Positions 599 to 63,458 of a stretch of 64,000 nucleotides of DNA are shown here, in pieces; position 1 is the first letter of the stretch; the number at the start of each line of letters is the position of its first letter. A program made the position numbers and the translations under genes. Under the pieces are notes generated by a model that did no database searches, had not been told where the DNA came from, and worked only from the letters and a program-made list of their open reading frames with translations. The DNA is from Candidatus Anstonellales archaeon (GTDB taxonomy: Archaea > Micrarchaeota > Micrarchaeia > Anstonellales > J096), in NCBI GenBank assembly GCA_038896535.1, contig JAWACY010000001.1:198397-262396 (forward strand), given 5' to 3'.

Positions 599-602
599 GC
601 AC

Positions 603-1109: not shown

Positions 1110-1172
1110 TCGAGGGGCTAAGACGCCTCCTTCACACGGAGGAGATCCCAGGTTCAAATCCTGGCAGGCCCA
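1100..1172 (+). tRNA. tRNA-Val (anticodon CAC)
   Basis: Cloverleaf by eye: acceptor GGGCCTG/CAGGCCC, anticodon stem CCTCC/GGAGG with loop TTCACAC, T-arm CCAGG-TTCAAAT-CCTGG, discriminator A. Confidence 0.85.
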
Positions 1173-1174
1173 TA

Positions 1175-3272: not shown

Positions 3273-3287
3273 TACTAATTTAGTAAT

Positions 3288-22991: not shown

Positions 22992-24918
22992 ATGTTTCTA
23001 TGAATGTCTTTCTTTTCTCTACATCTTCCCCCATTAATATTGAAAAAAGTTCATCTGCTATCTCAGCATCCTTTATTGTTACTTTATCAATTATTCTTTT
23101 TTCTGGCTGCATTGTTGTTTCCCATAATTGTTCTGGATTCATTTCTCCAAGGCCCTTATATCTTTGTATATTGCAATTTCCAATTTTATTTACTATGTTT
23201 TCTTTTTCTTCTTCTGAATATGCATAGTATATTGCCTTTCCTTTTGTTATCTTATAGAGTGGGGGATGTGCTATGTATATATGGCCATTTTCTATTAAAG
23301 GCCTCATATACCTAAAAAAGAACGTAAGAAGCAAGGTTTTTATGTGGTTCCCATCAACATCAGCATCAGTCATGATTATGATTTTTCCATATCTTAATTT
23401 ACTTATATCAAATTCCTCCTTTATGCCAGTGCCAATAGCTGTTATCAATGCCCTTATTTCTTCATTACTCAAAACCTTTATCCTGTTTGCTTTTTCAACA
23501 TTTATGACTTTTCCTTTTAATGGCATTATTGCTTGAAATTCTCTTGCTCTTGCCTGCTTTGCACTGCCACCAGCGCTTTCTCCTTCGACAATAAATAGCT
23601 CTGCTTTCTCAACATTTTTCTCAATACAATCAGCAAGCTTTCCAGGAAGCATGCTTGTTTCAAAGACACTTTTCCTCCTAACTGTTTCCTTTGCTTTTCT
23701 TGCTGCCTCTCTTGCTTCCATCGCTGATATTACTTTTTTCATTATTATTTTTGCATCTTCTCCATGCCTCTCAAGCCATTCTTGGAATTTGTCATAAAAA
23801 ATTCTTTCAACAATGCCCTTTATTTCATTATTGCCCAGCTTTGTTTTTGTTTGCCCTTCAAATTGCGGGGATGGTATTCTAACATGCAAGACGGCAGCAA
23901 GCCCTTCAAGCACATCCTCGCCAGAAACCTTTTGGCTCTGGCCATTTTTTCTCATATACTCATTTATGCCTCTTGTTAAAGCTGCCTTAAATCCTATTAC
24001 ATGAGTTCCCCCTTCTTCATTTCTTATTGTATTTGTAAATGCATGTATTGAATCATAAAATGTTTCATTGTATTGCAATGCTATTTCTATTGCAACGTTT
24101 CCTGCAATAGCATCATTCTCTTCTGATTTAATATATGCTATATTTTCATGTATTGGTTTTTTTGCCTCATTAATTGCCTTAACGAAATCTATAAGGCCGT
24201 TGTTAAATAAATATTTTTCCATCTCCCCATTGAATATAAATGTTATTGAAAGTCCAGGATTAAGGTAGGCTATTTCTTTTAATCTTGTTCTTATAATTGA
24301 GCTGTCCCATTGCTCATCGCCAAATATCTCTTTATCAGGCACAAACTTAACTATTGTTCCTGTTTCTGAATTTTCTGTTTTTCCTATCTCCTCAACCTGG
24401 CTCAATACATTGCCCTTTGAGTATTTTTGTCTATATATTTTATTATTTCTTTTTACGATAACTTCCATTTCTTGCGATAAGGCACATACAACGCTAATAC
24501 CAACACCATGTAAGCCGCCAGAGACTTTATAAGCAGTTTTTTCAAATTTTCCTCCTGCATGCAGCATTGTAACAACAGTTTCTAAAGTGCTTTTTCCTGT
24601 TTCTGGATGTGTTTCAACTGGAATGCCTCTTCCATCATCGCTTATTATTGCAGCATTTCCCTGTATTTCTACAATAATATTTTTGCAATAGCCAGCCATT
24701 GCTTCATCGACACTGTTATCTATAACCTCCCATAAAAGGTGGTGCATGCCCTTTTTTCCAGTATCTCCTATATACATTGCTGGCCTTAATCTTACGCCCT
24801 CAAGCCCTTTCAATACTTTAATATCCTTCGCCGTGTATTCATTATTTTCCAAAATACCACCTACATAGCAATATAAGAAAAAAACATTGTTATTCTTGTT
24901 ATTAATATTAATTATCAA
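22963..24918 (-). CDS. gyrB: DNA gyrase subunit B
   Basis: GHKL ATPase motifs ([23 protein letters not shown]), Toprim [10 protein letters not shown], and the DVDGNHI motif. 651 aa, immediately upstream of gyrA. Confidence 0.95.
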
Positions 24919-35481: not shown

Positions 35482-38400
35482 ATGGTTGGTCATATGGGGA
35501 ATAAAAATTTTATGTATGGCATAAAACATGGCATAAAGCATTGCCCAAATATTTTTTTAATTGCGCTTTTGATTATAATATTAACAAATATTTCGTTTTC
35601 ACTTAACTTCATATCAACAATAGAAAAAAAAGGCAATGAAATAGAGATAACATTTTATCCATATAAAATTCAAGAACTTCCATATCAATCAAACCCAAGG
35701 CAGACAACAATACAGATATTGCCATACAACCAAGCTGATATAGAAAGCTTTACTTATTATGTTGAAATAATAAATGCTTCTGGCTCAGTAATATCTTCTT
35801 TTTCAGATTCACAACTCAAAACTTCTATGAAAAGGGGCACAATAAATTTTAATAATGCAAACATACAGGGAGTTATATTTACAATACCTAGCCCTGCTTT
35901 AAATCAGGAATGTGCAATTGTAAAATTAAGTATAGCCGGCATAATAGAAGAAAACAATGCCAGAAATTCATTTGATGAAAAAAGACAAGAAGTGATATGT
36001 GAAAAATCATACCCCCTGGCTTTTAGACAAGGCCTTTCTGATTTATTAACTGCTATTAATTCAAATGCTGGAGTGTGTTACTCAATATTATTCATTTTTG
36101 TTTTTGCTGCTGCTGCATATTATGCTAGATTTGGAAGTACAATAATATCATTATATGATGTTGTAAGTCCGAAAGTATTCAAACTTAAAGAGCCGATATA
36201 TTCTTTAATGAGTGTTTCTCCAAGAGGAGAAATAGCAAAAAAGCTTGAAGAAGCAGATAGAAAAGTAAGAGCCGCTCTATATAAAGATTATGAAGAAAAG
36301 CTCAAACAAGCAGGGATAAATGAAGGAAAGCAATTAAGTTCTTCTGTATTTGAGAAACATCTATTAACTGATAAAAAGTATAAGGAGATAATTGAAGAGA
36401 TAAAAAAGAACATTGATACAGGAGAAAAAATCATAGAACGGTCTAATTTTTCAAAAGAGGAAAAAAAACTCCTCCGAACATATTTAATATTATTGATGCT
36501 TGAACAGATAAAAAGTCCATTTGCTCCAGCAAGCGGCGTAGCAAGGCCAGAAGCAAAAAGAGTTGCGGCTGTTTTGAGGCCTTTTAAATATGTTGGCAAA
36601 ATTAAAGAGGTTAAGTATATTGGAAAACCATTAAATTGGCTTGCTTTGCCGTTGGTGTTAACATCAAAACAAATAGCATCATCTGCTTATACTATTTCAA
36701 AAGCGCCAAGAGCAGTTATAGAATATTTTGGCTTGGGTGAAGCTGCCAGACAAGCAAGAAAAGCAATTATTGAGAAAGAAATAGAGCCAAAAGGCGAAAA
36801 AGAGAAAAGAATGCGCAATATCATAGAACTATTAGCAGGCCCAGAAAAGAAGCATAACATCATTGACATAGCTGTATTTAACAAAATGCCTTCAGAAATA
36901 GAGGATCATTTAAGAAGAGGGCTTGCTGTTCAAGCTATTGAAATAGCCCTTGATAAAAACAGAGAGTTAAAGACAGCATTTAGAGAAATGCAAGAAGAAC
37001 TTGCTAATTTTAAAAGCAGCAAGGACATAACAAACAAAATAAATTCAATAATTGAAAGATTTGGGTCAGATAAAGATAGGGAAAATTTAAAGCTTATAAT
37101 TGAGATCATTAAGGCAGAAAACAGTTATGGAATGCTTGAACTGTTTAATAAATTTTTAGATAAGAATAATATAGATGATCAGATAAAGGGAAAGATAAAT
37201 GACATAATAAAATTGAAGGACAAAGGGATTACAAATATTGAATTAAACATTTTATTTAGCGATTTTATATCAAGAGATTTGCACGATTTTTCTGTTAGGC
37301 AAAGGCTTATAGGACCATATGGAGATGAATCAAGAGATAAAAATAAAAAAACTAAAGACGCCCTTTTTTATCTATTTTTGAACCACCTATATAATGAGTT
37401 TATATTTTTATTTGATAAGCAGCAGTTATCAAACCTTGATGAAGGAGCATTTATTTTATGCGCAAAAATAGCAGCACGCATGGCTTCATATGAAGCTATA
37501 AAGGCGATATACGGGCATGCAGAGAAAGCAGAAATAATTGCTAATTTCTATTCAGCATTAAAAGGAAAGCTTGAAAAAGGGGATAAAGAGCAAAAAGCAC
37601 TGGCAGCATTAATTGACATTGAAATAATTAAGAGAAGAGCAGAGCAAGCAGAAGAGCATTATAAAAACATAGTTGATTATGCAGATAGGATTAAAGAGAG
37701 ACTTAATATTGATATTAAGGGAAAGCTTTATGATTACATTTTTTCACATGAAAAAGAATTTTCTATTCCAGATGAAATGGCTAGGCCTGCATATATAGGG
37801 TTCAGGCCACAAAAAATAACAAATGAGGATATAGAATTCATTAATAAAGCAAGCATTAATATGCTTCCAGTTTATTTAACTGAAAAATACTACAAATTTA
37901 ACATATCGCTTTTAAATGAAATTACAAATTCATTAAGAGGGGCAATATCAGAAGTCGGCGTTTTTAAAGAAAGGTTTTCATCTAATGTATTGAGTTTAAC
38001 ACTCCAGACATTACTTGAAGAAAGGTCTGACAGGCTTTTGGGCTCTGGCATAGATGAGTTAAGAATGAAAAAAGACCTTTTATTGGGCTACATAATTTAT
38101 ATAAGCGAGAGGTATGACATTAGAGATAATGAAGGCATATATAAAAAACTGGAGGAAATTTCTAAAAACGGAATATCTGAAACAGAACTTGAAATAGCAA
38201 GTAAAAGAGGATTTTTGATAGGAAAAACAAAAGACAATGAAGTAATATTAATACCAACAGCAAGCGTTATGAACAAAGTTTTAATATCAGAGAAAGAAAA
38301 GAACAGTTTTCTTGGTTTTAGTGATAACACTAAAGAGAGGATAATGTCGAAATTAGAAAGGATAAAAGAAAATCCATTACTGTTCCTTGAGAGATTATCA

Positions 38401-40404
38401 ACATTTTATATAACCATAAGCGGAATTGAAGAGTATTATATACTAACAAATGATGGCGGTGTGCCAAAGTTAAATAGTTTAAAGCCTTCAGAAGCTTATA
38501 TAGACAGTGAAACAAAGGAAAGAATAGAGAATGTATTAAAAGCATTAGAGCAAAAATTAGGGCAAAAAATGCAATTAACTGATTTATTCAATGCAGATGT
38601 TAATAAATTTAATGATTATATAAAACAATTACAGAAAAATGGCTTATCAGAACTAGACATTTTCAAGCTTGCTTATTCATATTATAAGCATAAAAAAGAA
38701 ATTAATGAAAGGATATATCTTGGCGATATAGATGTTTTTAGAAATCCACAAGATTATAATTTAATAATAGGAACAAAAGAAGAAATAAAACAAAAGCTCA
38801 TTCAACTAAAACAGCTCTCTCCTTTGTTTGAGGCTCTATCACCCGGAGCAGAAAATATAGAAAGTATAAAAGCAACAAAGTTCAAATTCAAAAATGCAAT
38901 GCAGGAACTTTTTGAAGGTTTCATAAATACTCCTTTATCTATTTATCAAGCCCTACATCCATTTGAGGGCATAGAATATATGCCTTATATTAACGCCATG
39001 AACTTTTACAGAGTTGAAGAAATAAAGGAATTGGCAAAGCGTACTGGAGATATAGATAAGGAAAATTTCAAAGAAGCAATAAAGCTTTATGAAGAGCATT
39101 TTAATTCAATGGGTTTCTTCCTTGACAGGAGTGCAAATAATGTTGTAGCTTCATATTTAGATGATGAGCATACAAAATATGCAATAGCCAAACATTATAG
39201 AGGAAGCATATTTGTTCCAGCAGGATTTTTAACTGGAAAAGAAGGAGTTATAAATATAAATAAATCAATGTATATAGATGCTCCACTTTTGGGGCTTTAT
39301 TCCCCAATATTCTCTATAGCAACAAGATTAGCAGAACCAAAGATAAAATTACTTGCTTTAGTAAATCAAGCGCTTTATAGGCCTAGATATTATAATACAG
39401 GTTATGATATATCTCATGATTATGACGAAAATCTGCGTGAATACTTAGAGAAAAAATATAATATGAGAGAACAGGAAATTAAATTTTTGGGCCATATAAG
39501 AAATGTTTCTGGTAATTATTTTAATTATACAGCAGAAACAACTGCTATAAGGCATGCAGCAGCACTAAGACATGCAATATCACTTGGAGCTGGCTATTCA
39601 GTTCCTCTTGCCACAGCTTTATTTGGGGCTATGTTTGGGCCAGTAGGTTTAATGTTAACTGAAAGCGCAAGGTTAATGACTTCTTCATTTTATGGCACTA
39701 AATATAGCTATCTTGATAAATTTTTAATGAGGTTAAACAAAGATGAATTAAATTCATACATAACATTGAATGACCTTTATTATAGAGCAGCATTGCATCA
39801 AGAACAATTGCAATGGTATAAAAGAGGCATAGCTTCTGCTTATGGGCCGATAGGAGCAGTTTTAGGTTATGGTTACTACTCATATATGACAGGCCAGCTA
39901 AGGCCAGAACCAGCACTCATAAGGAGCTATGCCAGATGGATGCAAAGATATGAGAATAAGCCATTTGATATAAATGCATATCAAATAGCATTAAATCTTG
40001 GCAATTACAGGCTTGCTGATACTGATATGCTTGAAGCAGCTGAAAAAACAGCAGCAATTAAAGAATGGGGGAAGCTTGAATGGAATAAACTTGCTTATAC
40101 ATTTATTTTTCCTTCATTAATAGTGAATTTTGCAATTGAAAACATGGCACATTATGGAAAAGGCCTATATAAAGAAGGAAAAGCAAGAGGCTTAAAAGCT
40201 GCTGGTAAGAAAGTAGCTAAGGACATATCCGCTGTTTCAGCTACAACATTATTATTATATCTAAGTCCAGCAGCTGCTGTTGTTGTCCCCTCATATATAT
40301 TAAAACATTCTTTGGCAAGCATTAGAGCAATATGTCCAAATTGTAAGAGAGAAAGGCAAAAAAATGTCGAATGTCCATATTGTGGTTATGTAGGATTTGT
40401 TTAA
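35482..40404 (+). CDS. Giant hypothetical protein (1640 aa): N-terminal signal anchor, very large mostly alpha-helical body, C-terminal cluster of TM helices and a terminal CxxC..CxxC zinc ribbon
   Basis: Single uninterrupted ORF. N-terminal hydrophobic IFLIALLIIILTNISF. C-terminal hydrophobic segments from ~residue 1300, ending CPNCKRERQKNVECPYCGYVGFV. Confidence 0.6.
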   Translation: MVGHMGNKNFMYGIKHGIKHCPNIFLIALLIIILTNISFSLNFISTIEKKGNEIEITFYPYKIQELPYQSNPRQTTIQILPYNQADIESFTYYVEIINASGSVISSFSDSQLKTSMKRGTINFNNANIQGVIFTIPSPALNQECAIVKLSIAGIIEENNARNSFDEKRQEVICEKSYPLAFRQGLSDLLTAINSNAGVCYSILFIFVFAAAAYYARFGSTIISLYDVVSPKVFKLKEPIYSLMSVSPRGEIAKKLEEADRKVRAALYKDYEEKLKQAGINEGKQLSSSVFEKHLLTDKKYKEIIEEIKKNIDTGEKIIERSNFSKEEKKLLRTYLILLMLEQIKSPFAPASGVARPEAKRVAAVLRPFKYVGKIKEVKYIGKPLNWLALPLVLTSKQIASSAYTISKAPRAVIEYFGLGEAARQARKAIIEKEIEPKGEKEKRMRNIIELLAGPEKKHNIIDIAVFNKMPSEIEDHLRRGLAVQAIEIALDKNRELKTAFREMQEELANFKSSKDITNKINSIIERFGSDKDRENLKLIIEIIKAENSYGMLELFNKFLDKNNIDDQIKGKINDIIKLKDKGITNIELNILFSDFISRDLHDFSVRQRLIGPYGDESRDKNKKTKDALFYLFLNHLYNEFIFLFDKQQLSNLDEGAFILCAKIAARMASYEAIKAIYGHAEKAEIIANFYSALKGKLEKGDKEQKALAALIDIEIIKRRAEQAEEHYKNIVDYADRIKERLNIDIKGKLYDYIFSHEKEFSIPDEMARPAYIGFRPQKITNEDIEFINKASINMLPVYLTEKYYKFNISLLNEITNSLRGAISEVGVFKERFSSNVLSLTLQTLLEERSDRLLGSGIDELRMKKDLLLGYIIYISERYDIRDNEGIYKKLEEISKNGISETELEIASKRGFLIGKTKDNEVILIPTASVMNKVLISEKEKNSFLGFSDNTKERIMSKLERIKENPLLFLERLSTFYITISGIEEYYILTNDGGVPKLNSLKPSEAYIDSETKERIENVLKALEQKLGQKMQLTDLFNADVNKFNDYIKQLQKNGLSELDIFKLAYSYYKHKKEINERIYLGDIDVFRNPQDYNLIIGTKEEIKQKLIQLKQLSPLFEALSPGAENIESIKATKFKFKNAMQELFEGFINTPLSIYQALHPFEGIEYMPYINAMNFYRVEEIKELAKRTGDIDKENFKEAIKLYEEHFNSMGFFLDRSANNVVASYLDDEHTKYAIAKHYRGSIFVPAGFLTGKEGVININKSMYIDAPLLGLYSPIFSIATRLAEPKIKLLALVNQALYRPRYYNTGYDISHDYDENLREYLEKKYNMREQEIKFLGHIRNVSGNYFNYTAETTAIRHAAALRHAISLGAGYSVPLATALFGAMFGPVGLMLTESARLMTSSFYGTKYSYLDKFLMRLNKDELNSYITLNDLYYRAALHQEQLQWYKRGIASAYGPIGAVLGYGYYSYMTGQLRPEPALIRSYARWMQRYENKPFDINAYQIALNLGNYRLADTDMLEAAEKTAAIKEWGKLEWNKLAYTFIFPSLIVNFAIENMAHYGKGLYKEGKARGLKAAGKKVAKDISAVSATTLLLYLSPAAAVVVPSYILKHSLASIRAICPNCKRERQKNVECPYCGYVGFV

Positions 40405-45064: not shown

Positions 45065-47233
45065 ATGGAAACAACATCATTTTCCTATCCCGCTGGATTT
45101 AATGAACCTACAAGCCAGCTATATCAATCATTTGATCCAAATAATAAAGACGATATAGAAAGAGAAAAAAAAGCAGCTAAGGATTATCCACTTATTCCAT
45201 CTTTAATGTTATCATTTTTGCCTGTTGTTGGGCCAGTAATAGATCTTATAAAGGCGTTAGAAGAAGGCAAATATTTGGAAGCATCTATGTATGCTGGTTT
45301 TCTTGTATCAGATTTATTTTTAGTTGGTTATGCTGCTAAATTACCCTTTAAATTTGCTATAAGATATTTGACTATTGATCAGATTGCTGATATATTTAGA
45401 CTTGGTTATAAAGCAATAAAAAAATTGAAGGAAGCAGGCAAAGCAGTTCCAAAAGAACTAGAGAGATTCTATAAATATTTACATGATCTCGGGGATATAA
45501 TTGCTGAAATGAAACAAGAGGGGGCAATGAGCCAAAAATTAAAAGAATACAGACGTGTTCTGGAAGAGATAAGAGGGGCTATTAAAATGCGGATAAAAGA
45601 AATGGGCCTTTATCATTATTTTGAAGCAAGAAGATTAGAAAAAGAAAAATTCTTAGAGAGCTTAAGAACATATATCGAACAAGAAATAAAAATTGGCGGT
45701 AATATATTAAAAGCATTGAAAGGCGACCAGAGAATAAGTGGTTATGCATTATTACTTGATAAAAGTGGTATGTGGAAATTAAATATGCTGTTGGGTAAGG
45801 CAGGGGGCGATATTGCTTTAGGTTTATATAATAGAGCTATTAAGGAAACAATAAAAGAGTTTGGGGAACTAATAAAAAAGGCAGAGATAAGTGAGGAAGA
45901 TATTTTGATAATTTATAAACCAGCAGGCGGAGATGAGTTTTATTTACATTTTTTATCAACAGATCCTTCAAAAGCAGAAAAAGCAGCAGCACTATTTGTT
46001 GAATTAGTAAAGGAAAAAATCCAAAAGGGAATAATAGAATTAGAAGCTTTGTTGCCACCTGGTTTAGCACATCAGTTAAAACAAAGTATTAATGAAATGC
46101 TAAATGGCTTAGCCTGGCATGGAAAGAGAGTTAATATTGAACCAAAGGGCAATGTAATAAAATTTTTTTCACCACATGGAGAGATAAGTGGCATACCAGA
46201 ATACCTTGGTGAAGTTGAATTTGAAAAATTGAGATCTAACCTGCCTGAAAAGATTGCTGACTTTTTTGATGGTTTTAGAAGGGCATTAAAAAGCGTAAAA
46301 GAAACAGTTCCATTGAATGTAGTTGATGTAGAAAAAGCGGTAAAAGCTTTGAAAGAAGGGAGTGCAAAGCTCATCAGGTTTGAGTTAATAATACCAAGTA
46401 AATTTTCACGACATTTTGATGCCTTAACAAGAGCAGCAGAGAAGGGCTATAGCGTTACATTTAATAGGGCTGGTCCAAGTGTTTTTAATTTACTTGGCCA
46501 TGATGTTACTGATACGATAAGGGATTTATATATTAAATCATTAAAGGAAGCTGCCAAGGAAATTGGTGTAGATATAGAAATTAGTGCAATAGATGGAAAA
46601 GGCCCATTTACCCTACTTGTTAAACTGTCTGATGAAAAAAAATTAAATGAATTAATGGAAAGAGCCAGAAGAATATTTGAAAGCTATGAAAATATTTCTC
46701 GTTATAGATTTAGGTTATCACAAGAAGCAGTCAGTAGGTTTGAAGATTTAAGCAGTCCAATAAAAAAGGTATATGAAGAAATAAACAAAGTCTCATCAGA
46801 AAATCCTACAATAAAGAGGCGAATAAATGAATGGACAACAAGATTGGGAGTACGTGAAAATGAAGCCTTAGAAAGGATGTTTAATACTTCATTAATTCTT
46901 ATTAAAACCCATTATGATAAATTTAGTAATTTAATAGGCCGTATGAATATTCCATATGAATTGAAAAAAGCAATAAAAGAGTTTGCAGAAGATAAAAGGG
47001 CAAGAAGCCTTGAAGATTTTTCTAGTATTCTAGAAAAGTACAAGCAAACAGGCGAATTTATTAGGTTGTTATTCACAAGAGAAGTTTCATTGCTACTTTT
47101 GGAGTTTTTATATAACCCAGAAAGATTTAGTGAAAAAGAAAAACAACCAAAACAACCAAAAACATTGGGTAGGGGTGATTTTGGGCAGCCAACTACTGAA
47201 TATATGCCACCCCCAGAAAGGTTGAAAAAATAA
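45065..47233 (+). CDS. GGDEF (diguanylate-cyclase-like nucleotidyl cyclase) domain protein with a long C-terminal uncharacterised region
   Basis: Residues ~225-300 are collinear with the GGDEF consensus: ALLLDKSGMWKLNMLLGKAGGDIAL (cf. LLLDIDHFKxINDxyGHxxGDxVL) and IIYKPAGGDEFYLHF (cf. RYGGEEFavll). The I-site RxxD is degenerate (SEED). Confidence 0.6.
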   Translation: METTSFSYPAGFNEPTSQLYQSFDPNNKDDIEREKKAAKDYPLIPSLMLSFLPVVGPVIDLIKALEEGKYLEASMYAGFLVSDLFLVGYAAKLPFKFAIRYLTIDQIADIFRLGYKAIKKLKEAGKAVPKELERFYKYLHDLGDIIAEMKQEGAMSQKLKEYRRVLEEIRGAIKMRIKEMGLYHYFEARRLEKEKFLESLRTYIEQEIKIGGNILKALKGDQRISGYALLLDKSGMWKLNMLLGKAGGDIALGLYNRAIKETIKEFGELIKKAEISEEDILIIYKPAGGDEFYLHFLSTDPSKAEKAAALFVELVKEKIQKGIIELEALLPPGLAHQLKQSINEMLNGLAWHGKRVNIEPKGNVIKFFSPHGEISGIPEYLGEVEFEKLRSNLPEKIADFFDGFRRALKSVKETVPLNVVDVEKAVKALKEGSAKLIRFELIIPSKFSRHFDALTRAAEKGYSVTFNRAGPSVFNLLGHDVTDTIRDLYIKSLKEAAKEIGVDIEISAIDGKGPFTLLVKLSDEKKLNELMERARRIFESYENISRYRFRLSQEAVSRFEDLSSPIKKVYEEINKVSSENPTIKRRINEWTTRLGVRENEALERMFNTSLILIKTHYDKFSNLIGRMNIPYELKKAIKEFAEDKRARSLEDFSSILEKYKQTGEFIRLLFTREVSLLLLEFLYNPERFSEKEKQPKQPKTLGRGDFGQPTTEYMPPPERLKK

Positions 47234-55788: not shown

Positions 55789-56286
55789 TTAAAAAGATTT
55801 CATTATGTTGCAAAAACTACCTTTGTAATGACCAATAAAAAACAATCTTTTATTTTTATCCTTTATTACAATGTCTGCAACATCCTTATTTTCTGTAACT
55901 ATATCAGTTATTTTTTCAGCCATTCTTATATCATTGACGTTTTCTATTCTAATTGCAAGAAAGTTTTTATCCAATTCATCAATTATGTGCCCATCAATTA
56001 TATTCTCATGAAAAGGCGGTAATAAAACTGCCCTTGCGTGTATCTTTTGCAATGCTTTTGCATAATTTATATTGCTTGTCTCAACCTGTACATGTATAAA
56101 GCGCGTCAGGGCATCATAAACATCAAAATTTTTCATCTTTCCATTTTTAAGATCAATATCTATAACATGCAAAAGCTTTATGCCTTTCAAGGACTTTATT
56201 TTGTTTATGCTACCAAAATGTTTTAGTGTTTCTCCCTCTAAAAAGAATTCTTTGTCTTTTAAATACACTAAAAGCCCCTTTATCAA
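55789..56286 (-). CDS. Hypothetical protein, 165 aa
   Basis: ORF with no confident family assignment; start overlaps the apgM stop. Confidence 0.4.
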   Translation of the reverse strand: MIKGLLVYLKDKEFFLEGETLKHFGSINKIKSLKGIKLLHVIDIDLKNGKMKNFDVYDALTRFIHVQVETSNINYAKALQKIHARAVLLPPFHENIIDGHIIDELDKNFLAIRIENVNDIRMAEKITDIVTENKDVADIVIKDKNKRLFFIGHYKGSFCNIMKSF

Positions 56287-57449
56287 GAGCCCACCTTTTT
56301 TGATTTATTTATCCAGTCTTTAACAAAATTTATGAGTTCGTGCTTTTCAATACTTTGCAAGCTTCCTTTTGATGCTTCTATTTCATTGAATGCCTTTGTT
56401 TCATCTTTTCCTATACTTTGTCCATAAGCAGTTATTATTGCTCCATGCGCGCTATGCCTTTTTAATTGCCATGGAGTAGCATGGTCACCAGTTATTATAA
56501 TTGCATCAAATTCATTTGAAATATGCTTTATTAATTCCCTATCTATTTTTTCATATGCTTTTATTTTTCCTTCTTCATTGCCATCATGTCCAAAATTATC
56601 TGCTGCTTTAACATGTATAAATACTATATCATTCATCTCTTTTGCCTTTATTGCCTCTCTTGCCTTTTCATAATAATTGCTTTTTATATCTCCAGTAGCA
56701 TTTTTTATGTTTTTTGCTTTCATGCCAACAAATCTTGCTATGCCTTTATAAAGTGCCCCTCCAGCAATCATCTCAGCATTTAATCCATGTTTATCATAAA
56801 AGTTTTGCTCTTCTTTGAACATGCCAGGCCCTCTTAATAAAAGAGCATTTGCCTTTTCATTTTGAAGCCTTCCCATTATTATGTTAACTGCTTTATTAAC
56901 AATGTCTGCTGTCTTTTTTGCTTGCTTGTTTAAAGGCATGCACTTCAGCAATTTCATTCCATCTTTCCCAGGATCTGTTGGCGAGATGTCTTTACTCAGG
57001 CCCTTGCCTTTTATCACTAAAACTCCCCTATGCTCAGTGCTGGCTTTAAATTGTATTTCATAACCATCTATGCTGAATGTTCCAATTTTTTTCTCAAGCT
57101 TTTTTGCATCTTCTGTTTTTATTCTTCCAGCCCTTCTATCTATAACAATATTGTTATCAACAATTGCAAAATTTGTCCTGAAAGCAAGGTCACCATGCTT
57201 AAGTTTTATATCAAGGCCAAGTGCTTCTAATGGGCCTCTGCCTATGTAATTTTTTTCGTCATAACCAAATATATAAAGATGGGCAATATCACTTCCAGGC
57301 ACTAGGCCTTTTCCTATGCTATAGAAAATGCCCTGCCTGCCTTTCTTTGCTATTTCATCTAAATACGGCACATGTGCTTTTTCCAAGGGGCTATTTCCTG
57401 GAATATTGCCAAGGCCATCAATGATAATAAGTGCTGCTTTCATATGCAA
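56283..57449 (-). CDS. apgM: 2,3-bisphosphoglycerate-independent phosphoglycerate mutase, archaeal type
   Basis: N-terminal ALIIIDGLGN, metal-binding blocks (GDHATP, HSAHG). 388 aa, typical ApgM. Confidence 0.9.
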   Translation of the reverse strand: MHMKAALIIIDGLGNIPGNSPLEKAHVPYLDEIAKKGRQGIFYSIGKGLVPGSDIAHLYIFGYDEKNYIGRGPLEALGLDIKLKHGDLAFRTNFAIVDNNIVIDRRAGRIKTEDAKKLEKKIGTFSIDGYEIQFKASTEHRGVLVIKGKGLSKDISPTDPGKDGMKLLKCMPLNKQAKKTADIVNKAVNIIMGRLQNEKANALLLRGPGMFKEEQNFYDKHGLNAEMIAGGALYKGIARFVGMKAKNIKNATGDIKSNYYEKAREAIKAKEMNDIVFIHVKAADNFGHDGNEEGKIKAYEKIDRELIKHISNEFDAIIITGDHATPWQLKRHSAHGAIITAYGQSIGKDETKAFNEIEASKGSLQSIEKHELINFVKDWINKSKKVGS

Positions 57450-57491
57450 TTTTTGTTGAATAATTTTAAAAAGGTTGTTTTATATAAAATT

Positions 57492-58145
57492 ATGGCAAGG
57501 GCAATAAAAAATGAAGATAAAAGCAAAAGCATTGCAGTAATAACTAAAGGATATGGCCATGGTAATACTGAAAAATCTGCTCTTGATTCAGCATTAAGGC
57601 AAGCAGGGATATGTGATTTTAATTTAATACCATTAACATCTATTTTGCCATTTGACTGCTATATTTATCATGTTGATTTAAGGAATTTGCTTTATACGAA
57701 CGCATGCCTTGATGTATACGGAGTTTGTTTAAATGGCATTATATCAATATATGTCGGAAAAGGCAAGGCAAGTGCCGGCCTAGCAATGTCTGTAAATGAT
57801 TATTGTCCATTTATTATTGAAGCGCATGCACAGAATGTGGCTAAATGCTATGACATGTTGCAAACTGGAGCAAGCGAAATGCTTGAAAACAGGCTTTCTA
57901 GCTGGCCTTTTTTCCTGAAAAAACATGAGATAGAAGAAGAAAAAAAGAAAACAAAATATTTTGTAGTAAGCGCTGGCTCAAGAAAGCATAAATTCACTGC
58001 TTGTGTTTCTGCTTTGCTATTTATACAAAATAAACAATTGTTAAATTTAATAAGAAATGCAGAAGAAAAAGATAGGAAATTTGTTTGTGCAACACCATCA
58101 AAGCAAGATGGAAGAAATAAAATTATTAATTTATTAAAAAGATAG
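57492..58145 (+). CDS. pdaD: Pyruvoyl-dependent arginine decarboxylase
   Basis: GYGHGNTEKSALDSALRQAGICDFNLIPLTSILP aligns to the PdaD self-cleavage/active-site region (..NAGIGNVNLIRISSIMP). I take the start at MARAIK (ATG 57492), not the upstream in-frame ATG that overlaps apgM. Confidence 0.75.
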   Translation: MARAIKNEDKSKSIAVITKGYGHGNTEKSALDSALRQAGICDFNLIPLTSILPFDCYIYHVDLRNLLYTNACLDVYGVCLNGIISIYVGKGKASAGLAMSVNDYCPFIIEAHAQNVAKCYDMLQTGASEMLENRLSSWPFFLKKHEIEEEKKKTKYFVVSAGSRKHKFTACVSALLFIQNKQLLNLIRNAEEKDRKFVCATPSKQDGRNKIINLLKR

Positions 58146-58217
58146 CCCCCGCCGGGATTTGAACCCGGGCCTCAGGCTCCGCAGGCCTGCGTTCAGTCCA
58201 AGCTAAACTACGAGGGC
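58144..58217 (-). tRNA. tRNA-Arg (anticodon GCG)
   Basis: Reverse complement folds: acceptor GCCCTCG/CGGGGGC (one G-U), anticodon stem CAGGC/GCCTG with loop CTGCGGA, T-arm CCGGG-TTCAAAT-CCCGG, discriminator T. Confidence 0.8.
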
Positions 58218-58515
58218 TTTGGCCCTGTTTAATATGTTAATATGAATATAATTATTCTTAATTTTTACTCTTGTTTATGTATTCTTGTTTATGTGTTTAT
58301 ATCTACTTTACATATTTTTTCTGTCTTTAATAGTGCTTTTTAATAAGTGCTGGGATGATATTTAGAATGATATTTAAGGAGTAAAATGTTAATGCGAGAT
58401 ATCTGCAAGGATATCATGCAAGATTAGAATAATTAAAATAAAAAGATTAAAATAAAAAAAGAAATAAAAAATAAAAACCAGTTATTTTTTTAATGCTTAT
58501 CTATGCTATGTTCTT

Positions 58516-58806: not shown

Positions 58807-58906
58807 TTTTTCACCCCTGTTTTCGCTCTTAATTATTATTATCAGAAACATTTAAAAACCAATAAATAGCCGCAAGAAATAAAATAACTGCAATAAATAA
58901 TTGGTG

Positions 58907-58979
58907 CGCCCTGGGGAGGACTTGAACCTCCGACCTACCGGTTAACAGCCGGTCGCTCTACCAACTGAGCTACCAGGGC
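58907..58979 (-). tRNA. tRNA-Asn (anticodon GTT)
   Basis: Reverse complement: acceptor GCCCTGG/CCAGGGC, anticodon stem ACCGG/CCGGT with loop CTGTTAA, T-arm GGAGG-TTCAAGT-CCTCC, discriminator G. Confidence 0.85.
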
Positions 58980-59090: not shown

Positions 59091-59750
59091 TTATCTTCTC
59101 TTTAATATATTGCCTTTTTTTCTTCTCGCATTTTTCTTATTCCACTTTTTATTCTTATTAATTTTATCTTTATTAACTTTAGCCTGCTTTAATTTTTTCA
59201 TTCTTTTTTTAACTCCATCAATTTTTGCTTTCTCCACTTTATTTTTATTCTTGCTTTTATTTGCTAACCCAGATGAAAGCGCCTTTCTGTATTTATCTAT
59301 AACACTTTCATCTATGAGTTCAAGCCTTGTTTTGTGCAAAGGGCATAAGAAATTGTAGTCCATTGCAAGTTCAAATTTTATTGGATTATCTATTGAACAT
59401 TTTTTGCAGTAATAATATTCTCCTTCTATAAGTAAATTTTGCAAATAAGCTATTCTTGTACTTATTTTTTTGTTAAACCAGTTGATGACTCTTTCAGGAG
59501 AGAAAACCCAAGAGTAGTAATACCAACCAGTCTCTTTATCCTTAGTTCTTTCATAATCAAGAATACCTGCTTGGTTTAATTTATTCAAAACTGCGCGCAC
59601 ATCACTAACTTTTACTTTTAAATACTGCGCTATTCTTTCATCATCCCCGGTTTTTTCCAATAATCTTAATATTTTAAATATACTTTGCCCGCCTATATTC
59701 TCAAGCTCTTCTTTTAGTTGTTTATTTTGCATTATTTTATTTAGGCTCAT
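59091..59750 (-). CDS. tfe: Transcription factor E (TFE alpha, TFIIE-alpha homologue) with a K-rich C-terminal tail
   Basis: N-terminal winged helix (IFKILRLLEKTGDDERIAQYLKVKVSDVRAVLNKL) followed by the Zn ribbon CKKCS...CPLH. Confidence 0.7.
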   Translation of the reverse strand: MSLNKIMQNKQLKEELENIGGQSIFKILRLLEKTGDDERIAQYLKVKVSDVRAVLNKLNQAGILDYERTKDKETGWYYYSWVFSPERVINWFNKKISTRIAYLQNLLIEGEYYYCKKCSIDNPIKFELAMDYNFLCPLHKTRLELIDESVIDKYRKALSSGLANKSKNKNKVEKAKIDGVKKRMKKLKQAKVNKDKINKNKKWNKKNARRKKGNILKRR

Positions 59751-59761
59751 GCTCCCACCAA

Positions 59762-60445
59762 TTATTTGCCAAACCTCCTCTCCCTTTTTGTATAATCATC
59801 AAGGGCAAGCAATAAATCTTCTTTCTCAAATTCAGGCCATAATTTATCTGAAAAAAATAACTCACTATAAGCAGATTGCCATAATAGATAACCAGATAAC
59901 CTCTTCTCCCCCCCAGTTCTTATAATTAAATCAGCCGGGGTTTTTACCATTAAATTTTTTTCTATATCTCCCTCTTCTATAAAATCTATTTTCTGTTTTT
60001 GTTTTATTGCATTGTTTATTGCATTTATTATCTCATATCTCCCACCATAAGCAAGCAGAATATTTAACTTGTAAGGCCCATTATTATTTGTTACGTCCAT
60101 TAATTCAAGACATTTTTTTTCAATATGATTTGGTAATTTTTCAAGCATACCATGAAAAGATATTTTAACCTGCTCTTTTCTTTTGTCATCGCTTTTTTTG
60201 TATTCATTTATTATTTTGTCTAAAGTTGCCCCCAATAAAGTCCATATTGTTTCTTTCTCTTTTTCATCTCTATTAAAATTTTCTGTGCTAAATCCCCATA
60301 AGGTCATTTCTTTTACATCAGTATCTTTTACCCATTCGACAACATCTCTTATTTTTTCAATGCCTATTTTGTATGCTTCTTCTATTGTTAAGCCATTTCT
60401 TTTAGCAAATCTTCTATTGCCATCAGGAATGATTGCTACGTGCAT
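59762..60445 (-). CDS. uppS: cis-Prenyltransferase (undecaprenyl/dehydrodolichyl diphosphate synthase family)
   Basis: HVAIIPDGNRRFA and IRTGGEKRLSGYLLWQSAYSELFF are UPPS signature blocks. Start taken at MHVAII. Confidence 0.9.
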   Translation of the reverse strand: MHVAIIPDGNRRFAKRNGLTIEEAYKIGIEKIRDVVEWVKDTDVKEMTLWGFSTENFNRDEKEKETIWTLLGATLDKIINEYKKSDDKRKEQVKISFHGMLEKLPNHIEKKCLELMDVTNNNGPYKLNILLAYGGRYEIINAINNAIKQKQKIDFIEEGDIEKNLMVKTPADLIIRTGGEKRLSGYLLWQSAYSELFFSDKLWPEFEKEDLLLALDDYTKRERRFGK

Positions 60446-60572
60446 GTTAATAATATTATAATACAAAATGCTTTTAAATGTGCTTTTAAATTTTATAAAA
60501 AAATAAAGATTCATTAAAAATTTATTATGCAGATAATCATGATTTTTAAATCCTTATAACCATAATTTAATT

Positions 60573-62315
60573 ATGCAAGACATTTCATTGCAAAGAAAAA
60601 GCCCTTTTGTTATGTCATTTATTGGCAAAGGCGGCAGTGGAAAAACCACATTAGTAAAGGCAACATCAAAATTTTTTGCAAGCCAAGCGTTAGAAAAAAA
60701 GGACAATGCCAATAATGGCATTTTAGTTTTTGATTTAGATAGCAGCAATAAACATTTAAGAAATTTTAATCAAAAGGGCATTTTAACAGTTCCTTTATAT
60801 AAAAAGAGGGATATTGCAAGAGCATGGGAGAAATATGTTTTAGGAAAAAAAGATGCCATAATGCTTTTTGATTTTCCTGCTTCATTTACTGACGGTATTT
60901 ATTATAGAATATTAGAGCAATCTGATTTAATAGCGCTTGTTTTGAACCCACTTAAGTCAGTTATAGAAGCAAATATAGAATGGCTTGGTTTTATATTAAG
61001 AAACGGGCTTAGTGAGAAGTGTGTAATTATTTATAACAAAGCAGGAACAGTAAAAACAAAGGACCAGAAAGAAGGAATATTAATGATGGAAAAAATTGAG
61101 AAAGAGCTTGGCATAGGAAATAAAATTGTTTTTTTCCCATACACAGAAAAAATAAAATGGTTTAATGGAAATTTTAACCAGAGCATTAATCAAGCATTGC
61201 ATGATCTTGCTCAAATCATAGAGCAGCAGAAAAAATTTGATGTAGAAAGATATAGCCTAGCCATAACAGACATGAACGGCGATAAGAATAATGATGCGTT
61301 TATGTCAGAAAAACAACAACAGCAAAAGCAAAATCAACAAGAACAACAAAGTCAACAAGAACAACAAAGGCATGCTAAAATATTCCCATATAGCATTGTT
61401 TCTCTGGCTTTAATGTTTTTTTTGAGTACGCCATCTTATTTAAGCAAAAATGCTGAAGTAAAGGAGGAACAAAGACAGACAATAATTTTAAATGAAATAT
61501 CAGCAAAACTTGAAGAAACGCGAGATAATGACTATGATGGAATGCAATATATAAGATTTTTATATTCTATAATAGATAAGAGGCAAAAGCAGTTAGTAGA
61601 TGCATTCATAAATAAGAAAGCATTTAAATATAGAATACAGGCTGGCGATGCATTAGAGCATTTTGCTCAATGGGCATTTCAGAGATATAGCGGGTTTTTG
61701 TCTTTAGATAGTTATGAAGCCATAACAAGCTATTATAAATTTTATGAGGAATTAAAGAAAGCAAATAACGGCGTTGATATATTGAAAGCAGGCAGCATAC
61801 TTGTTGTCCCAGCATATAATTGGGAAAGAAGCCAATATTATGAAAGAGTCTTATCTTTTCTTTTTTTCCTTGATAGATATATTGATAGAGCAAGAATAAC
61901 CGGGGTTTTTGGAGAAAAAAGGAAAAAATCAGAACATCTTGGCATTGACATAGCATCAAGAGAAGCAGCAATGATAAGAGCAATAAAATCTGGCATTGTT
62001 TATAATGCTGGCTATTCAACAGATTATGGTTTTTTCGTTGATATACTTGTTTCAGAGAACAATGAAAATTATATAATGCGCTATGCTCATCTTGCAAAAA
62101 GGCCAAAAATAAAAAGAGGGCAGAGAATAAGAGAAGGAAATATAATAGGGTTTATGGGCAAAACCGGAAAAGCATTTGGCACGCATTTGCATTTAGAATT
62201 TTTAGTATTTTCAGATAATAAAGAGCTTGTGCCAGTTGATGCTATTCAAAAGATTTTTGAAATCTTAGAGAATAAGAAAGCATTTATAATGTCAAACATT
62301 GCAAAAAATGATTAA
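60573..62315 (+). CDS. Fusion protein: N-terminal ParA/MinD-type deviant-Walker-A ATPase, Q-rich linker and a single TM, C-terminal M23 (LytM) metallopeptidase domain
   Basis: FIGKGGSGKTT (KGGxGKT deviant Walker A) and the downstream Asp motifs. QQQQKQNQQEQQSQQEQQ linker. TM at IFPYSIVSLALMFFLS. M23 motifs HLGIDIA, NAGYSTDYG, MRYAHL and GTHLHLEF (the HxxxD and HxH zinc ligands). Confidence 0.7.
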   Translation: MQDISLQRKSPFVMSFIGKGGSGKTTLVKATSKFFASQALEKKDNANNGILVFDLDSSNKHLRNFNQKGILTVPLYKKRDIARAWEKYVLGKKDAIMLFDFPASFTDGIYYRILEQSDLIALVLNPLKSVIEANIEWLGFILRNGLSEKCVIIYNKAGTVKTKDQKEGILMMEKIEKELGIGNKIVFFPYTEKIKWFNGNFNQSINQALHDLAQIIEQQKKFDVERYSLAITDMNGDKNNDAFMSEKQQQQKQNQQEQQSQQEQQRHAKIFPYSIVSLALMFFLSTPSYLSKNAEVKEEQRQTIILNEISAKLEETRDNDYDGMQYIRFLYSIIDKRQKQLVDAFINKKAFKYRIQAGDALEHFAQWAFQRYSGFLSLDSYEAITSYYKFYEELKKANNGVDILKAGSILVVPAYNWERSQYYERVLSFLFFLDRYIDRARITGVFGEKRKKSEHLGIDIASREAAMIRAIKSGIVYNAGYSTDYGFFVDILVSENNENYIMRYAHLAKRPKIKRGQRIREGNIIGFMGKTGKAFGTHLHLEFLVFSDNKELVPVDAIQKIFEILENKKAFIMSNIAKND

Positions 62316-62380: not shown

Positions 62381-62454
62381 GCCGCAGTAGCTCAGCCCGG
62401 TAGAGCACCCGGCTGAAGACCGGGGTGTCGGTGGTTCAAATCCGCCCTGCGGCA
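62381..62454 (+). tRNA. tRNA-Phe (anticodon GAA)
   Basis: Acceptor GCCGCAG/CTGCGGC, anticodon stem CCCGG/CCGGG with loop CTGAAGA, T-arm GGTGG-TTCAAAT-CCGCC, discriminator A. Confidence 0.85.
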
Positions 62455-62480: not shown

Positions 62481-63458
62481 ATGGAAATTATGCTGTTTTT
62501 ATCATCTCTTGTTATTGCATTCATAATTTCCTTTTTAAGCACAGGTATATTGATAAAATGGCAGCAAGATAAAAAAATGCTTGTTAGGGATATGCATAAG
62601 CCAGGAAATTGGCTTGTTCCAGGTATTGGCGGGCCTGCAATACTTGTTGGGTTTATTTTTGGCACGATATTCTTGATAAGCCTTTTCATATTAAATTCAA
62701 AGCCATTCGATTACCACTATATTTTTGCTGCTTTATTATGCATAACAGTCTTATCTTATATGGGCATTGTTGATGATTTATTTCAACTTCCATCTTATTG
62801 GAAATTTTTTCTCCCTGCAATAGCATCAATAGCTTTAGTCGGAGTAATGATAATTTCAAAGCAAACAATGATGTTAATACCTTTCATAGGCACCTATGAT
62901 TTTGGCATGCTATATCCTTTATTATTAATACCAGTTGGCATAATAGTAGCTTCAAACTTTACAAATATGCTGGCTGGTTTTAATGGCATTGAAAGTGGTA
63001 TGGGCATTATCGCATTTATCTCTCTTTGCATTATATCATTTTTATTAAACAAGGAAGGCGTTGCAGCTATAAGTTTTCCAATGCTTGGTTCATTGCTTGC
63101 ATTTTTCTTATTCAATAAATATCCATCAAAAATATTTCCAGGGGATAGCGGAACGTATTTAATAGGCGGGGCAATAGCTTCAGCAGTTATAATAGGTAAT
63201 ATAGAGGGTTTTGGTGCTATAATAATGATCCCATATGCTGTTGATGCTGTTATTAAAGCAATAAATAAGTTTCCAAAATCATTTGCAGATTATGCAAATG
63301 GAAAACTTTATGCTCCTAAGAAAAAGATAAGGGGCTTGGTTGATCTTTTCCTCATGCTTATTGGTGGAGCAAAAGAGAAAAATATAACAATATTTTTCAT
63401 GCTTGTTGAGGCATTATTTTCAATATTGGCAATTATAATATATACGCACATTATATGA
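62481..63458 (+). CDS. GT4-family UDP-HexNAc:polyprenol-phosphate HexNAc-1-phosphate transferase (MraY/WecA/AglH family)
   Basis: Polytopic membrane protein with the catalytic DDxxD-type motif MGIVDDLFQLP plus the NxxNxxDGIDGL-like NMLAGFNGIESG block. Confidence 0.7.
   Translation: MEIMLFLSSLVIAFIISFLSTGILIKWQQDKKMLVRDMHKPGNWLVPGIGGPAILVGFIFGTIFLISLFILNSKPFDYHYIFAALLCITVLSYMGIVDDLFQLPSYWKFFLPAIASIALVGVMIISKQTMMLIPFIGTYDFGMLYPLLLIPVGIIVASNFTNMLAGFNGIESGMGIIAFISLCIISFLLNKEGVAAISFPMLGSLLAFFLFNKYPSKIFPGDSGTYLIGGAIASAVIIGNIEGFGAIIMIPYAVDAVIKAINKFPKSFADYANGKLYAPKKKIRGLVDLFLMLIGGAKEKNITIFFMLVEALFSILAIIIYTHII

Follow-up and report, generated by a model that had tools for sequence, protein, structure and literature searches.

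A predicted membrane-spanning fusion of a MinD/ParA-class ATPase with a LysM-like module and an M23 peptidase in Micrarchaeota

We describe a protein in which a MinD/ParA-class ATPase and an M23 peptidase are joined on one polypeptide across a single predicted transmembrane (TM) segment. Its gene lies in a stretch of 64,000 nucleotides of Candidatus Anstonellales archaeon, hereafter the window (GenBank assembly GCA_038896535.1, contig JAWACY010000001.1, forward-strand positions 198,397 to 262,396). By its sequence, the product of the open reading frame (ORF) at 60573..62315 is a bitopic membrane protein that runs through the ATPase, a linker, the TM segment, a stalk, a LysM-like module and the M23 domain, in that order (Table 1). 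It is identical to P0001, annotated as 'M23 family metallopeptidase [Candidatus Anstonellales archaeon]' and encoded on a 419-kb contig. The individual parts are known. Their combination is apparently undescribed, real and conserved, and restricted to very few uncultivated Micrarchaeota: the literature searched yielded no account of a MinD/ParA-TM-LysM-M23 polypeptide, and sequence searches returned no protein outside the family with this combination. A preliminary description of the locus had recognised the ATPase, a Q-rich linker, the TM segment and an M23 domain with intact zinc ligands. This anatomy stands, with the addition of the LysM-like module between the TM segment and M23, which had been overlooked; the conserved uppS synteny, the extreme rarity and the fast evolution of the family reported below were also absent from it.

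Domain architecture and authenticity of the fusion

The N-terminal domain had been called ParA/MinD-like on the strength of its motif FIGKGGSGKTT. Taken alone, the window copy is difficult to recognise: NCBIfam ParA_partition matched the full protein with E = 8e-5 and the isolated domain with E = 1.8e-5, Pfam CbiA/ParA did not match it, no MinD model reached E < 0.01, and phmmer against the PDB gave P-loop-level matches only. A profile built from the N-domains of five family members matched MinD (PDB 4v03) with E = 8e-16 over profile positions 12-187, which upholds the call. The same profile matched the archaeal MinD structures 1ion, 1hyq and 1g3q, and then ArsA/Get3, FlhG, Soj and NifH. When the five N-domains were compared with curated models, ParA_partition matched all of them (best E = 2.6e-12) and CbiA matched four (best 4.9e-12), with AAA_31 matched too. 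The NCBIfam models BcsQ, minD_bact (TIGR01968) and minD_arch (TIGR01969) matched three of the five, and all these NCBIfam matches, ParA_partition included, stayed below the curated cut-offs; the best E values of the two minD models (1e-8 and 1e-7, respectively) are far below equivalog level. Matches to ABC_tran covered the P-loop only, with E of at least 0.004. These profile comparisons assign the domain to the MinD/ParA superfamily (SIMIBI class, deviant Walker A) and place it outside MinD proper and outside every curated subfamily. The nucleotide-binding and hydrolysis motifs are conserved, and N155 is likewise invariant in the ATPase domains of the full-length members, so the enzyme looks intact. 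A reading of the domain as a bacterial tyrosine kinase (BY-kinase) was ruled out, as there is no Tyr cluster after the core and eps_fam (TIGR01007) matched only one member of five (9.3e-6). No Min partners were found in the neighbourhood of the gene within the window.

At the other end of the protein, Pfam Peptidase_M23 (PF01551) matched residues 454-544 with E = 2.5e-19 and 69.7 bits against a cut-off of 28.7. A phmmer search of the PDB aligned the domain with lysostaphin (4.5e-10) motif by motif: H455 and D459 correspond to HxxxD, H506 to the catalytic His of YxHL, and H538 and H540 to HxH. None of the five varies within the family, which bears out the earlier claim of intact zinc ligands and leaves no room for a degenerate metal site. 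The AlphaFold2 (AF2) model of residues 289-580 has a mean predicted local distance difference test (pLDDT) score of 83.7 and a predicted template-modelling score (pTM) of 0.82; the M23 part scores mostly 87-96, falling to 62-78 where it begins at the N-terminal side. Foldseek matched it with probability 1.0 to LytM, lysostaphin, EnpA, DipM, ShyA and EnvC (target-normalised TM-scores 0.65-0.78). The best NCBIfam matches of the ectodomain were ShyC (4.9e-17; 61.9 bits against a cut-off of 700), MepM (42.9 against 341) and ShyA (41.2 against 700), all below the equivalog cut-offs; SpoIIQ matched with E = 1.4e-5, and the EnvC coiled-coil had no Pfam match. M23 is also the best-conserved domain of the family. 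By the criteria of sequence and fold, it is expected to be a catalytically competent endopeptidase rather than a degenerate LytM factor of the EnvC, NlpD or SpoIIQ kind. M23 entries are 97% bacterial (PMC9662197), and one survey found M23-type peptidoglycan hydrolases in only 10 archaeal genomes (PMC12352652), in agreement with the earlier remark that such peptidases are uncommon in archaea.

The ectodomains of the family are basic, with isoelectric points (pI) of 8.8-10.3. Two orthologues carry R/K/H-rich C-terminal tails after M23 (P0006, residues ~700-754, locus L002; P0007, residues ~640-691, locus L003), and their ectodomains have net charges of +27 and +41. Such polybasic tails, which the window copy does not have, are odd on an extracellular enzyme unless they bind an anionic surface.

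Between the stalk and M23, the AF2 models contain a module of E-H-H-E topology (pLDDT ~84-95) in which W367, A368, F369, Q370, R371 and N398 are invariant across the family. The top Foldseek matches of this module in the PDB were all LysM domains: Mg1LysM (6q40, probability 0.97), the LysM of a T. thermophilus NlpC/P60 protein (4xcm, 0.95), then MltD, 8rhf, 4uz2 and Kbp. These matches have E values of at least 0.049 and TM-scores of at most 0.51, and the helices of the module are longer than canonical. Pfam LysM (PF01476) matched two of six members weakly, with a best E of 0.004 and below the gathering score, and did not match the window copy. The models give moderate confidence that residues 345-415 are LysM-like. 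The connector that follows has four invariant residues (R419, Y423, L427 and R450).

The two halves are held together by poorly conserved segments. The Q-rich linker noted earlier is real, and its Q/E-rich run is underlain by an in-frame, imperfect 18-bp tandem repeat in the DNA (61329-61369). The single TM segment, too, agrees with the preliminary description: each orthologue has exactly one hydrophobic peak at the same position (Kyte-Doolittle 1.57-1.93), and it is this position, not the sequence, that is conserved. The first ~30 residues of the stalk are modelled with pLDDT of 36-44. Since the ATPase needs ATP, it should lie on the cytoplasmic side, and the LysM-M23 half would then face outward (N-in/C-out), between the membrane and the surface layer (S-layer). 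A weak hint in the same direction comes from N-glycosylation sequons (N-x-S/T), of which the family ectodomains (residues 289-580 in the window copy) contain one against 5.5 expected by shuffling (P~0.02), whereas the cytoplasmic halves contain eight against 9.5 expected. The effect is weak and the sample small; selection may have acted against the glycosylation of an enzyme that is exported.

The preliminary description had allowed for two genes joined by a frameshift or an assembly error in the Q-rich repeat, and a related alternative is that the ATPase half is a functionless relic. Some features could be read in this way: the N-domain of the window copy is hard to recognise by itself, the Q-rich region is a tandem repeat in the DNA, one orthologue (L009) is annotated as two genes, and an internal methionine with a signal-peptide-like segment ahead of the TM segment in three members suggests an ancestral two-gene state. 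The repeat unit of 18 bp is a multiple of three and in frame. The same continuous architecture is kept, as the preliminary description had proposed to check, in five other orthologues, which are 25-52% identical, come from independent Micrarchaeota assemblies and lack the Q-repeat; one of them (P0007) was recovered also from an independent Logan assembly. The Walker A, switch I and Walker B residues do not vary within the family. At L009 the separately annotated upstream 'gene' of 199 residues is a KGGxGK ATPase, and the TM segment and ectodomain resume after a scaffold gap of 10 N; the gap causes the split, which rules out a two-gene version, and by its sequence P0005 is a sixth full-length member. 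Because orthologues from independent assemblies keep the architecture without the repeat and the one split is a scaffold gap, we regard the fusion as genuine, and the chance of artefact or decay as negligible.

A fossil signal-peptide look, with an internal Met, a polar or basic stretch and then a hydrophobic segment, was seen in P0006 (residues ~341-406; L002 8001-10265), in P0002 (residues 233-258; L001) and in the window copy (residues 244-288; 61302-61436). In P0002 the segment reads MKKKANRLKAVMYALSASLLLLLPPA, and in P0006 the TM segment is preceded by a Tat-like motif, GITRRQFIEG. The pattern suggests that the fusion arose when a minD-like gene was joined to a downstream gene for a secreted LysM-M23 protein, and an internal start may yield a free ectodomain.

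Table 1. The fusion gene, its predicted domains and motifs, and adjoining genes (nucleotide positions in the window; identity is the mean pairwise value in the family, with the range of segment lengths)
Feature	Position	Strand	Residues	Evidence or remark	Identity (length)
Complete ORF	60573..62315	+	580 aa + stop	ATG start; ATPase-linker-TM-stalk-LysM-like-M23	
MinD/ParA-class ATPase core	60606..61217	+	~12-215	Family profile vs PDB, Pfam CbiA, NCBIfam ParA_partition	28% (201-329 aa)
Deviant Walker A, FIGKGGSGKTT	60618..60650	+	16-26	Signature Lys K19, P-loop Lys K24; G18, K19, G20, G21, G23, K24 invariant (5 full-length members)	
Switch I / Walker A', ILVFDLDSSNK	60720..60752	+	50-60	D54, D56 invariant; align with MinD 'DxD' (4v03)	
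Walker B / switch II, IMLFDFPAS	60858..60884	+	96-104	D100, P102 invariant; align with MinD 'DSPAG'	
Variable low-complexity cytoplasmic linker	61218..61373	+	216-267		12.5% (14-52 aa)
Q/E-rich run in linker	61308-61367	+	~246-265	Restricted to window copy	
Single predicted TM segment, AKIFPYSIVSLALMFFLSTPS	61374..61436	+	268-288	Only hydrophobic peak, Kyte-Doolittle 1.51	20% (19-25 aa)
Extracytoplasmic juxtamembrane stalk, variable	61437..61604	+	289-344		17% (31-56 aa)
LysM-like beta-alpha-alpha-beta module	61605..61817	+	345-415	AF2 fold, Foldseek; family signature WAFQR, residues 367-371	38% (69-74 aa)
Connector helix between LysM-like module and M23	61818..61922	+	416-450	Modelled helix, residues 423-434	36% (35-37 aa)
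M23 (LytM-type) zinc endopeptidase domain	61923..62216	+	451-548	H455-x3-D459, H506, H538-x-H540	43% (98-102 aa)
C-terminal helix after M23	62217..62312	+	549-580	Modelled helix, residues 557-579; in all orthologues	
TFE-alpha (TFIIE_alpha)	59091..59750	-		Pfam; in conserved TFE-UppS-X block	
Cis-prenyltransferase, UppS-type polyprenyl diphosphate synthase	59762..60514	-		Divergent neighbour; Pfam Prenyltransf E=1e-66; NCBIfam uppS 201.7 bits vs cut-off 109.55	
Family 4 glycosyltransferase (GT4), polyprenyl-phosphate HexNAc-1-P transferase (AglH/WecA/MraY superfamily)	62481..63458	+		Downstream; Pfam Glycos_transf_4 E=1e-34	

Distribution, evolution and gene neighbourhood

A profile of the protein without its M23 domain was searched against 1.84 billion representative proteins and returned 11 matches. 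Six are family members, and the other five are MinD/CpaE/FlhG-like ATPases matched weakly (E~1e-4). Four of the six are full length: the window protein P0001 (580 residues), P0002 (522), P0006 (754) and P0007 (691). The remaining two are fragments, P0004 (293 residues), whose cluster contains the full-length P0013 (560), and P0005 (249), which comes from the gapped locus L009. A pattern scan of one genome per species over 185,579 prokaryotic species found three loci, two of them titled Candidatus Micrarchaeota archaeon and the third (L007) Methanobacteriota archaeon. Besides the assembly of the window, GCA_015522475.1, GCA_026982895.1 and GCA_003694965.1 contain the gene. Metagenome contigs scanned with the WAFQR pattern gave none, and neither did the viral contigs scanned. 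A search with the full-length alignment of five members added no new ones and retrieved only bacterial EnvC-like M23 proteins at ~55 bits; with the nearest outsiders at this level, no close bacterial donor was detectable. The only locus retrieved from metagenome contigs with P0013 (L010) was rejected as a family member. It encodes, at 516-3453, an EnvC-like coiled-coil M23 protein of bacterial or candidate phyla radiation type directly upstream of a MurC-like ligase, and was retrieved through its M23 domain only.

The family changes fast. Between the window and the other genomes, UppS, TFE and phosphoglycerate mutase are 47-53% identical and the fusion protein 25-34%; between L002 and L003 the corresponding values are 64-70% and 30%. 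By this comparison the rate of evolution of the fusion is about double that of the adjoining housekeeping genes. The sequences indicate a gene that is old within its lineage and vertically inherited, a lineage-specific invention of a small group of Micrarchaeota.

The gene order on its upstream side is constant. In all five loci where this side is visible (the window, L002, L003/L004, L008 and L009), the gene divergently adjoins uppS. In four of them TFE-alpha follows on the far side of UppS, while the sequence of L009 ends within uppS. The polyprenyl-phosphate carrier on which envelope glycans are built comes from UppS, and this linkage hints at a role in the envelope. In its listed form, the UppS ORF begins 23 codons before the conserved start 'MHVAIIPDGNRR' of the orthologues, and the UppS of L009 begins MLPNHVAFIPDGNRRW. 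The real start is probably M24, in which case the two divergent genes would be ~127 bp apart instead of 58 bp.

Downstream, the window and L008 share the order tRNA-Phe, GT4 and ATP synthase D, whereas L001, L002 and L003 have phosphoglycerate mutase, preceded in L002 and L003 by dCTP deaminase. This break in synteny between lineages coincides with the position of tRNA-Phe, which in the window (62381-62454, +) directly follows the fusion gene; tRNA-Asn (58906-58979, -) and tRNA-Arg (58143-58218, -) lie a few kb upstream. The best PDB match of the GT4 is DPAGT1, a dolichyl-P GlcNAc-1-P transferase (6.9e-12; GlcNAc, N-acetylglucosamine). A true MraY of pseudomurein synthesis is unsupported, given that NCBIfam MraY_archaea scored 57 bits against a cut-off of 450 and that the best solved relative is the dolichyl-P enzyme. 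The presence of UppS and an MraY/AglH-superfamily GT4 on either side of the gene could nevertheless be read as parts of one pathway, in which an undiscovered, peptide-containing glycan polymer of the envelope is built on a polyprenyl-phosphate carrier and the fusion is an autolysin dedicated to this polymer, with a built-in MinD-type switch that brings it to the division site. We consider this very improbable. If true, it would be a one-polypeptide answer to the problem that bacteria solve with MinCDE/FtsZ and FtsEX-EnvC, and a murein-like wall biology would be known for the first time from DPANN archaea.

The window as a whole is ordinary archaeal chromosome of ~31% GC and encodes Alba, TFE-alpha, EF-2, MCM, gyrase A/B, A-type ATP synthase subunit D, CDP-archaeol synthase and seven tRNAs. 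Comparison of the fusion with PHROGs and BFVD gave generic M23 lysin similarity only and no sign of a phage origin, PADLOC found no meaningful defence system, and within the window neither a toxin/immunity partner near the gene nor adhesin or pilus genes linked to it were found. Four large ORFs have no Pfam match: 35482-40404 (+), 25022-27289 (-), 45065-47233 (+) and 19358-20614 (-), of 1640, 755, 722 and 418 residues, respectively. Three of them begin with a signal-like hydrophobic segment, and the ORF of 418 residues has, in addition, a TM anchor at its C-terminus, as is typical of surface proteins of archaea. These ORFs may encode components of the envelope or S-layer and are conceivable substrates or partners of the fusion. 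Two further observations concern the annotation and content of the window. The ORF of a pyruvoyl-dependent arginine decarboxylase (57372-58145, +) overlaps the phosphoglycerate mutase gene (56283-57449, -) by ~78 bp at its 5' end; its Pfam match begins only at residue 55, and the true start is probably further downstream. The DNA gyrase A and B genes (20598-24918, -) are of bacterial type, in a DPANN genome.

Mode of action and substrate

The reading that we prefer, tentatively and with considerable doubt, is that a module for ATP-dependent dimerisation and positioning sets the place at which the tethered LysM-M23 hydrolase works outside the membrane, and that its target is most likely the glycosylated envelope of the cell itself. 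ATPases of the MinD, ParA, Soj and NifH type form ATP-sandwich dimers through their signature lysine, and by analogy the N-domain would probably dimerise through K19. The ATP cycle would then probably control dimerisation, clustering and placement, for example at the division plane or at another site marked from the cytoplasm, and this placement would set where and when the tethered hydrolase acts. On the outside, the LysM-like module would hold a glycan of the GlcNAc type, and a peptide bond close to it would be cleaved by M23. An S-layer glycoprotein or its anchors would be the likeliest substrate, opened locally for growth, division or the formation of contact sites. A proteinaceous S-layer has been reported for Micrarchaeota (bioRxiv 10.1101/2021.04.28.441871).

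Positioning was preferred to force transmission on account of the two tethers. Linker and stalk differ in length by tens of residues between orthologues and are only 12.5% and 17% identical, against 43% for M23 and 38% for the LysM-like module. Because the tethers on both sides of the TM segment are hypervariable and flexible, most likely no force is pushed through the membrane. The alternative is allosteric gating across the membrane, in the manner of FtsEX-EnvC, where the ATP cycle of the cytoplasmic dimer would act through the TM helices to open an auto-inhibited LysM-M23 unit, 'closed' like that of ShyA. ABC (ATP-binding cassette) and MinD-type ATPases are both ATP-sandwich dimers, the catalytic motifs of the ATPase are strictly conserved, and the ectodomain model is compact (pTM 0.82). 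Its top structural match is moreover the closed, LysM-occluded ShyA, over 162 aligned columns, which is more than the M23 core alone. This match has a root-mean-square deviation of 9.6 Å, however, so a shared arrangement of the domains is not really demonstrated. Tethers of low complexity or low pLDDT around a single TM segment would be floppy and transmit force poorly, and the class of ATPase, the number of TM segments and the status of M23 are all unlike those of FtsEX-EnvC. We judge gating improbable.

As to the substrate, the own envelope was ranked first because the enzyme is permanently tethered, because its gene is vertically inherited in a housekeeping block beside uppS, and because no mobile, viral or defence association was found. 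The TFE-UppS-X block is retained in all five observable loci despite rearrangement downstream, and in two genomes an AglH-like GT4 adjoins the gene.

The main rival is a contact-dependent attack on bacterial murein. Here the tethered LysM-M23 unit would be a true peptidoglycan endopeptidase that damages or lyses the bacteria it touches, for scavenging, predation or competition, with the ATPase gathering the enzyme where the cells touch. The ectodomain is indeed built like murein DD-endopeptidases, with a LysM-like module ahead of M23, all catalytic residues in place, ShyC, MepM and ShyA as its best NCBIfam matches and ShyA as its best Foldseek match. Its basic character, which is extreme in the two tailed orthologues, and its fast evolution relative to the neighbouring genes would fit such a role as well. 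There are precedents in the killing of bacteria by M23 hydrolases of archaea (PMC12352652) and in the genes for peptidoglycan degradation proposed for 'vampiristic' DPANN archaea (PMC9723730). The manner of deployment and the genetic setting speak against it. Known weaponised hydrolases are secreted or injected rather than anchored beneath the cell's own S-layer by a stalk of ~30-55 residues. The archaea known or supposed to serve as hosts of Micrarchaeota have no wall or have an S-layer (PMC12892359). The gene is part of a housekeeping block that is inherited vertically and not of a patchy, horizontally acquired island, there is no toxin/immunity partner nearby, and a close bacterial donor is not detectable, with the nearest outsiders at ~55 bits. 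Attack on murein is unlikely on balance, and still the strongest of the competing explanations.

Fast evolution and restriction to one lineage are typical of proteins that interact with a host, and the enzyme might instead cleave (glyco)proteins on the surface of a host archaeon and so breach the host envelope at the site of attachment, where the ATPase would concentrate the enzyme. A membrane tether suits tight cell-cell contacts, the LysM-like module could bind N-glycans that contain GlcNAc, and the lineage is one of the DPANN groups with variable host dependency (PMC12892359). The same source describes Anstonellales as comparatively capable in metabolism and less host-dependent. The gene has no linked adhesin or pilus genes, and the cell's own S-layer would be a steric obstacle, as it would for an attack on murein. 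No M23 enzyme is known to act on archaeal surface proteins. A role at the host interface is improbable, to the same degree as gating.

Several points weigh against positioning of the enzyme on the cell's own envelope. To our knowledge, every characterised enzyme that combines LysM with M23 acts on murein, and we know of no M23 enzyme that processes S-layer proteins. The family is very rare even inside Micrarchaeota, which is odd for a core function in division or growth, and its roughly twofold faster evolution fits a protein engaged in interactions or an arms race at least as well as a housekeeping one. The uppS adjacency may be mere retention of an ancestral gene order among related genomes. 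On the side of the protein, the LysM assignment is below threshold in both Pfam and Foldseek, the ATPase domain of the window copy is the most divergent of the family, the hydrophobicity of its TM segment is marginal (1.51), and the positive-inside rule does not decide the topology.

Relation to known systems

The fusion bears on how archaea open and remodel their envelopes in growth, division and contact, and on the physical interactions of DPANN cells with other cells. It offers a tractable handle on one of three subjects: the spatial control of envelope hydrolysis in archaea, contact-dependent killing of bacteria, or the breaching of a host envelope by a symbiont. Unless the mechanism turns out to be new, its general importance is limited by the small size of the family, which occurs in only a few Micrarchaeota, all uncultivated.

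The ectodomain most resembles MepM/YebA of E. coli and ShyA/ShyC of Vibrio cholerae, which likewise have a LysM-type module N-terminal to an intact M23 domain; the top Foldseek match is ShyA (6ue4). MepM is also anchored in the membrane by an N-terminal TM segment. Unlike these proteins, the fusion scores far below the curated cut-offs, has no middle domain of the Csd3 type, and belongs to an archaeon without known murein. Before its TM segment it carries a cytoplasmic MinD-like ATPase of ~270 residues, which no MepM/ShyA protein does.

Among archaeal proteins, the closest parallel is with secreted M23 hydrolases such as 'Woldo' of Halogranum salarium, which also combine a catalytic M23 domain of bacterial type with a module of a cell-wall-binding type and show that archaea can carry functional M23 murein hydrolases (PMC12352652). 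Those proteins are secreted, pair M23 with PG_binding_1, are patchily distributed and were recently acquired from bacteria, whereas the fusion is tethered, joined to an ATPase, LysM-like, vertically inherited and without a close bacterial relative. SpoIIQ and SpoIVFA of Bacillus are bitopic proteins with a single-pass anchor and an extracytoplasmic LytM/M23 fold. The fusion shares both features with them and differs in that their LytM domains are degenerate, non-catalytic scaffolds and their short cytoplasmic tails carry no ATPase.

A cytoplasmic P-loop domain related to MinD/ParA is coupled through the membrane to an extracytoplasmic domain for envelope polymers in the BY-kinase/PCP (polysaccharide co-polymerase) proteins Wzc and CapA-CapB, and the N-domain profile matched CapA1/CapB1 (4jlv) with E = 4.5e-4. 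Their domain order is the opposite of that in the fusion, which has neither a Tyr cluster nor a PCP domain nor two TM segments, and whose extracellular part is a peptidase. With the positioning ATPases MinD, FlhG, BcsQ, MipZ and Soj, the fusion has in common the deviant Walker A with its signature lysine, the DxD of switch I and the Walker B motif D-x-P-[AG]. BcsQ is a precedent for such an ATPase placing a machine for an envelope polymer. In contrast to MinD, the fusion has no C-terminal amphipathic membrane-targeting helix; it is anchored by its TM segment and continues into an extracellular enzyme of ~290 residues, and no partner of the MinC/MinE type is evident. It would extend the MinD/ParA repertoire to a covalently membrane-spanning form.

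FtsEX-EnvC, together with FtsEX-PcsB, -CwlO and -RipC, shares the concept of a cytoplasmic ATPase that forms ATP-sandwich dimers and is coupled across the membrane to a LytM/M23-fold domain, and EnvC is among the structural matches of the fusion ectodomain (6tpi, 8tzl and 4bh5). The preliminary description had drawn this parallel, which survives as a loose functional analogy and fails in the particulars. The ATPase is of the MinD/ParA (SIMIBI) class and not an ABC protein, and one TM segment stands in place of the four of FtsX with its structured periplasmic domain. The M23 domain is catalytic where EnvC is a degenerate activator of amidases, one polypeptide takes the place of three, and the flexible, hypervariable tethers argue against rigid, mechanical transmission of force of the FtsEX type. 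If the ATP state does control the hydrolase, the fusion would represent a new control logic for cell-wall hydrolases, distinct from that of FtsEX.

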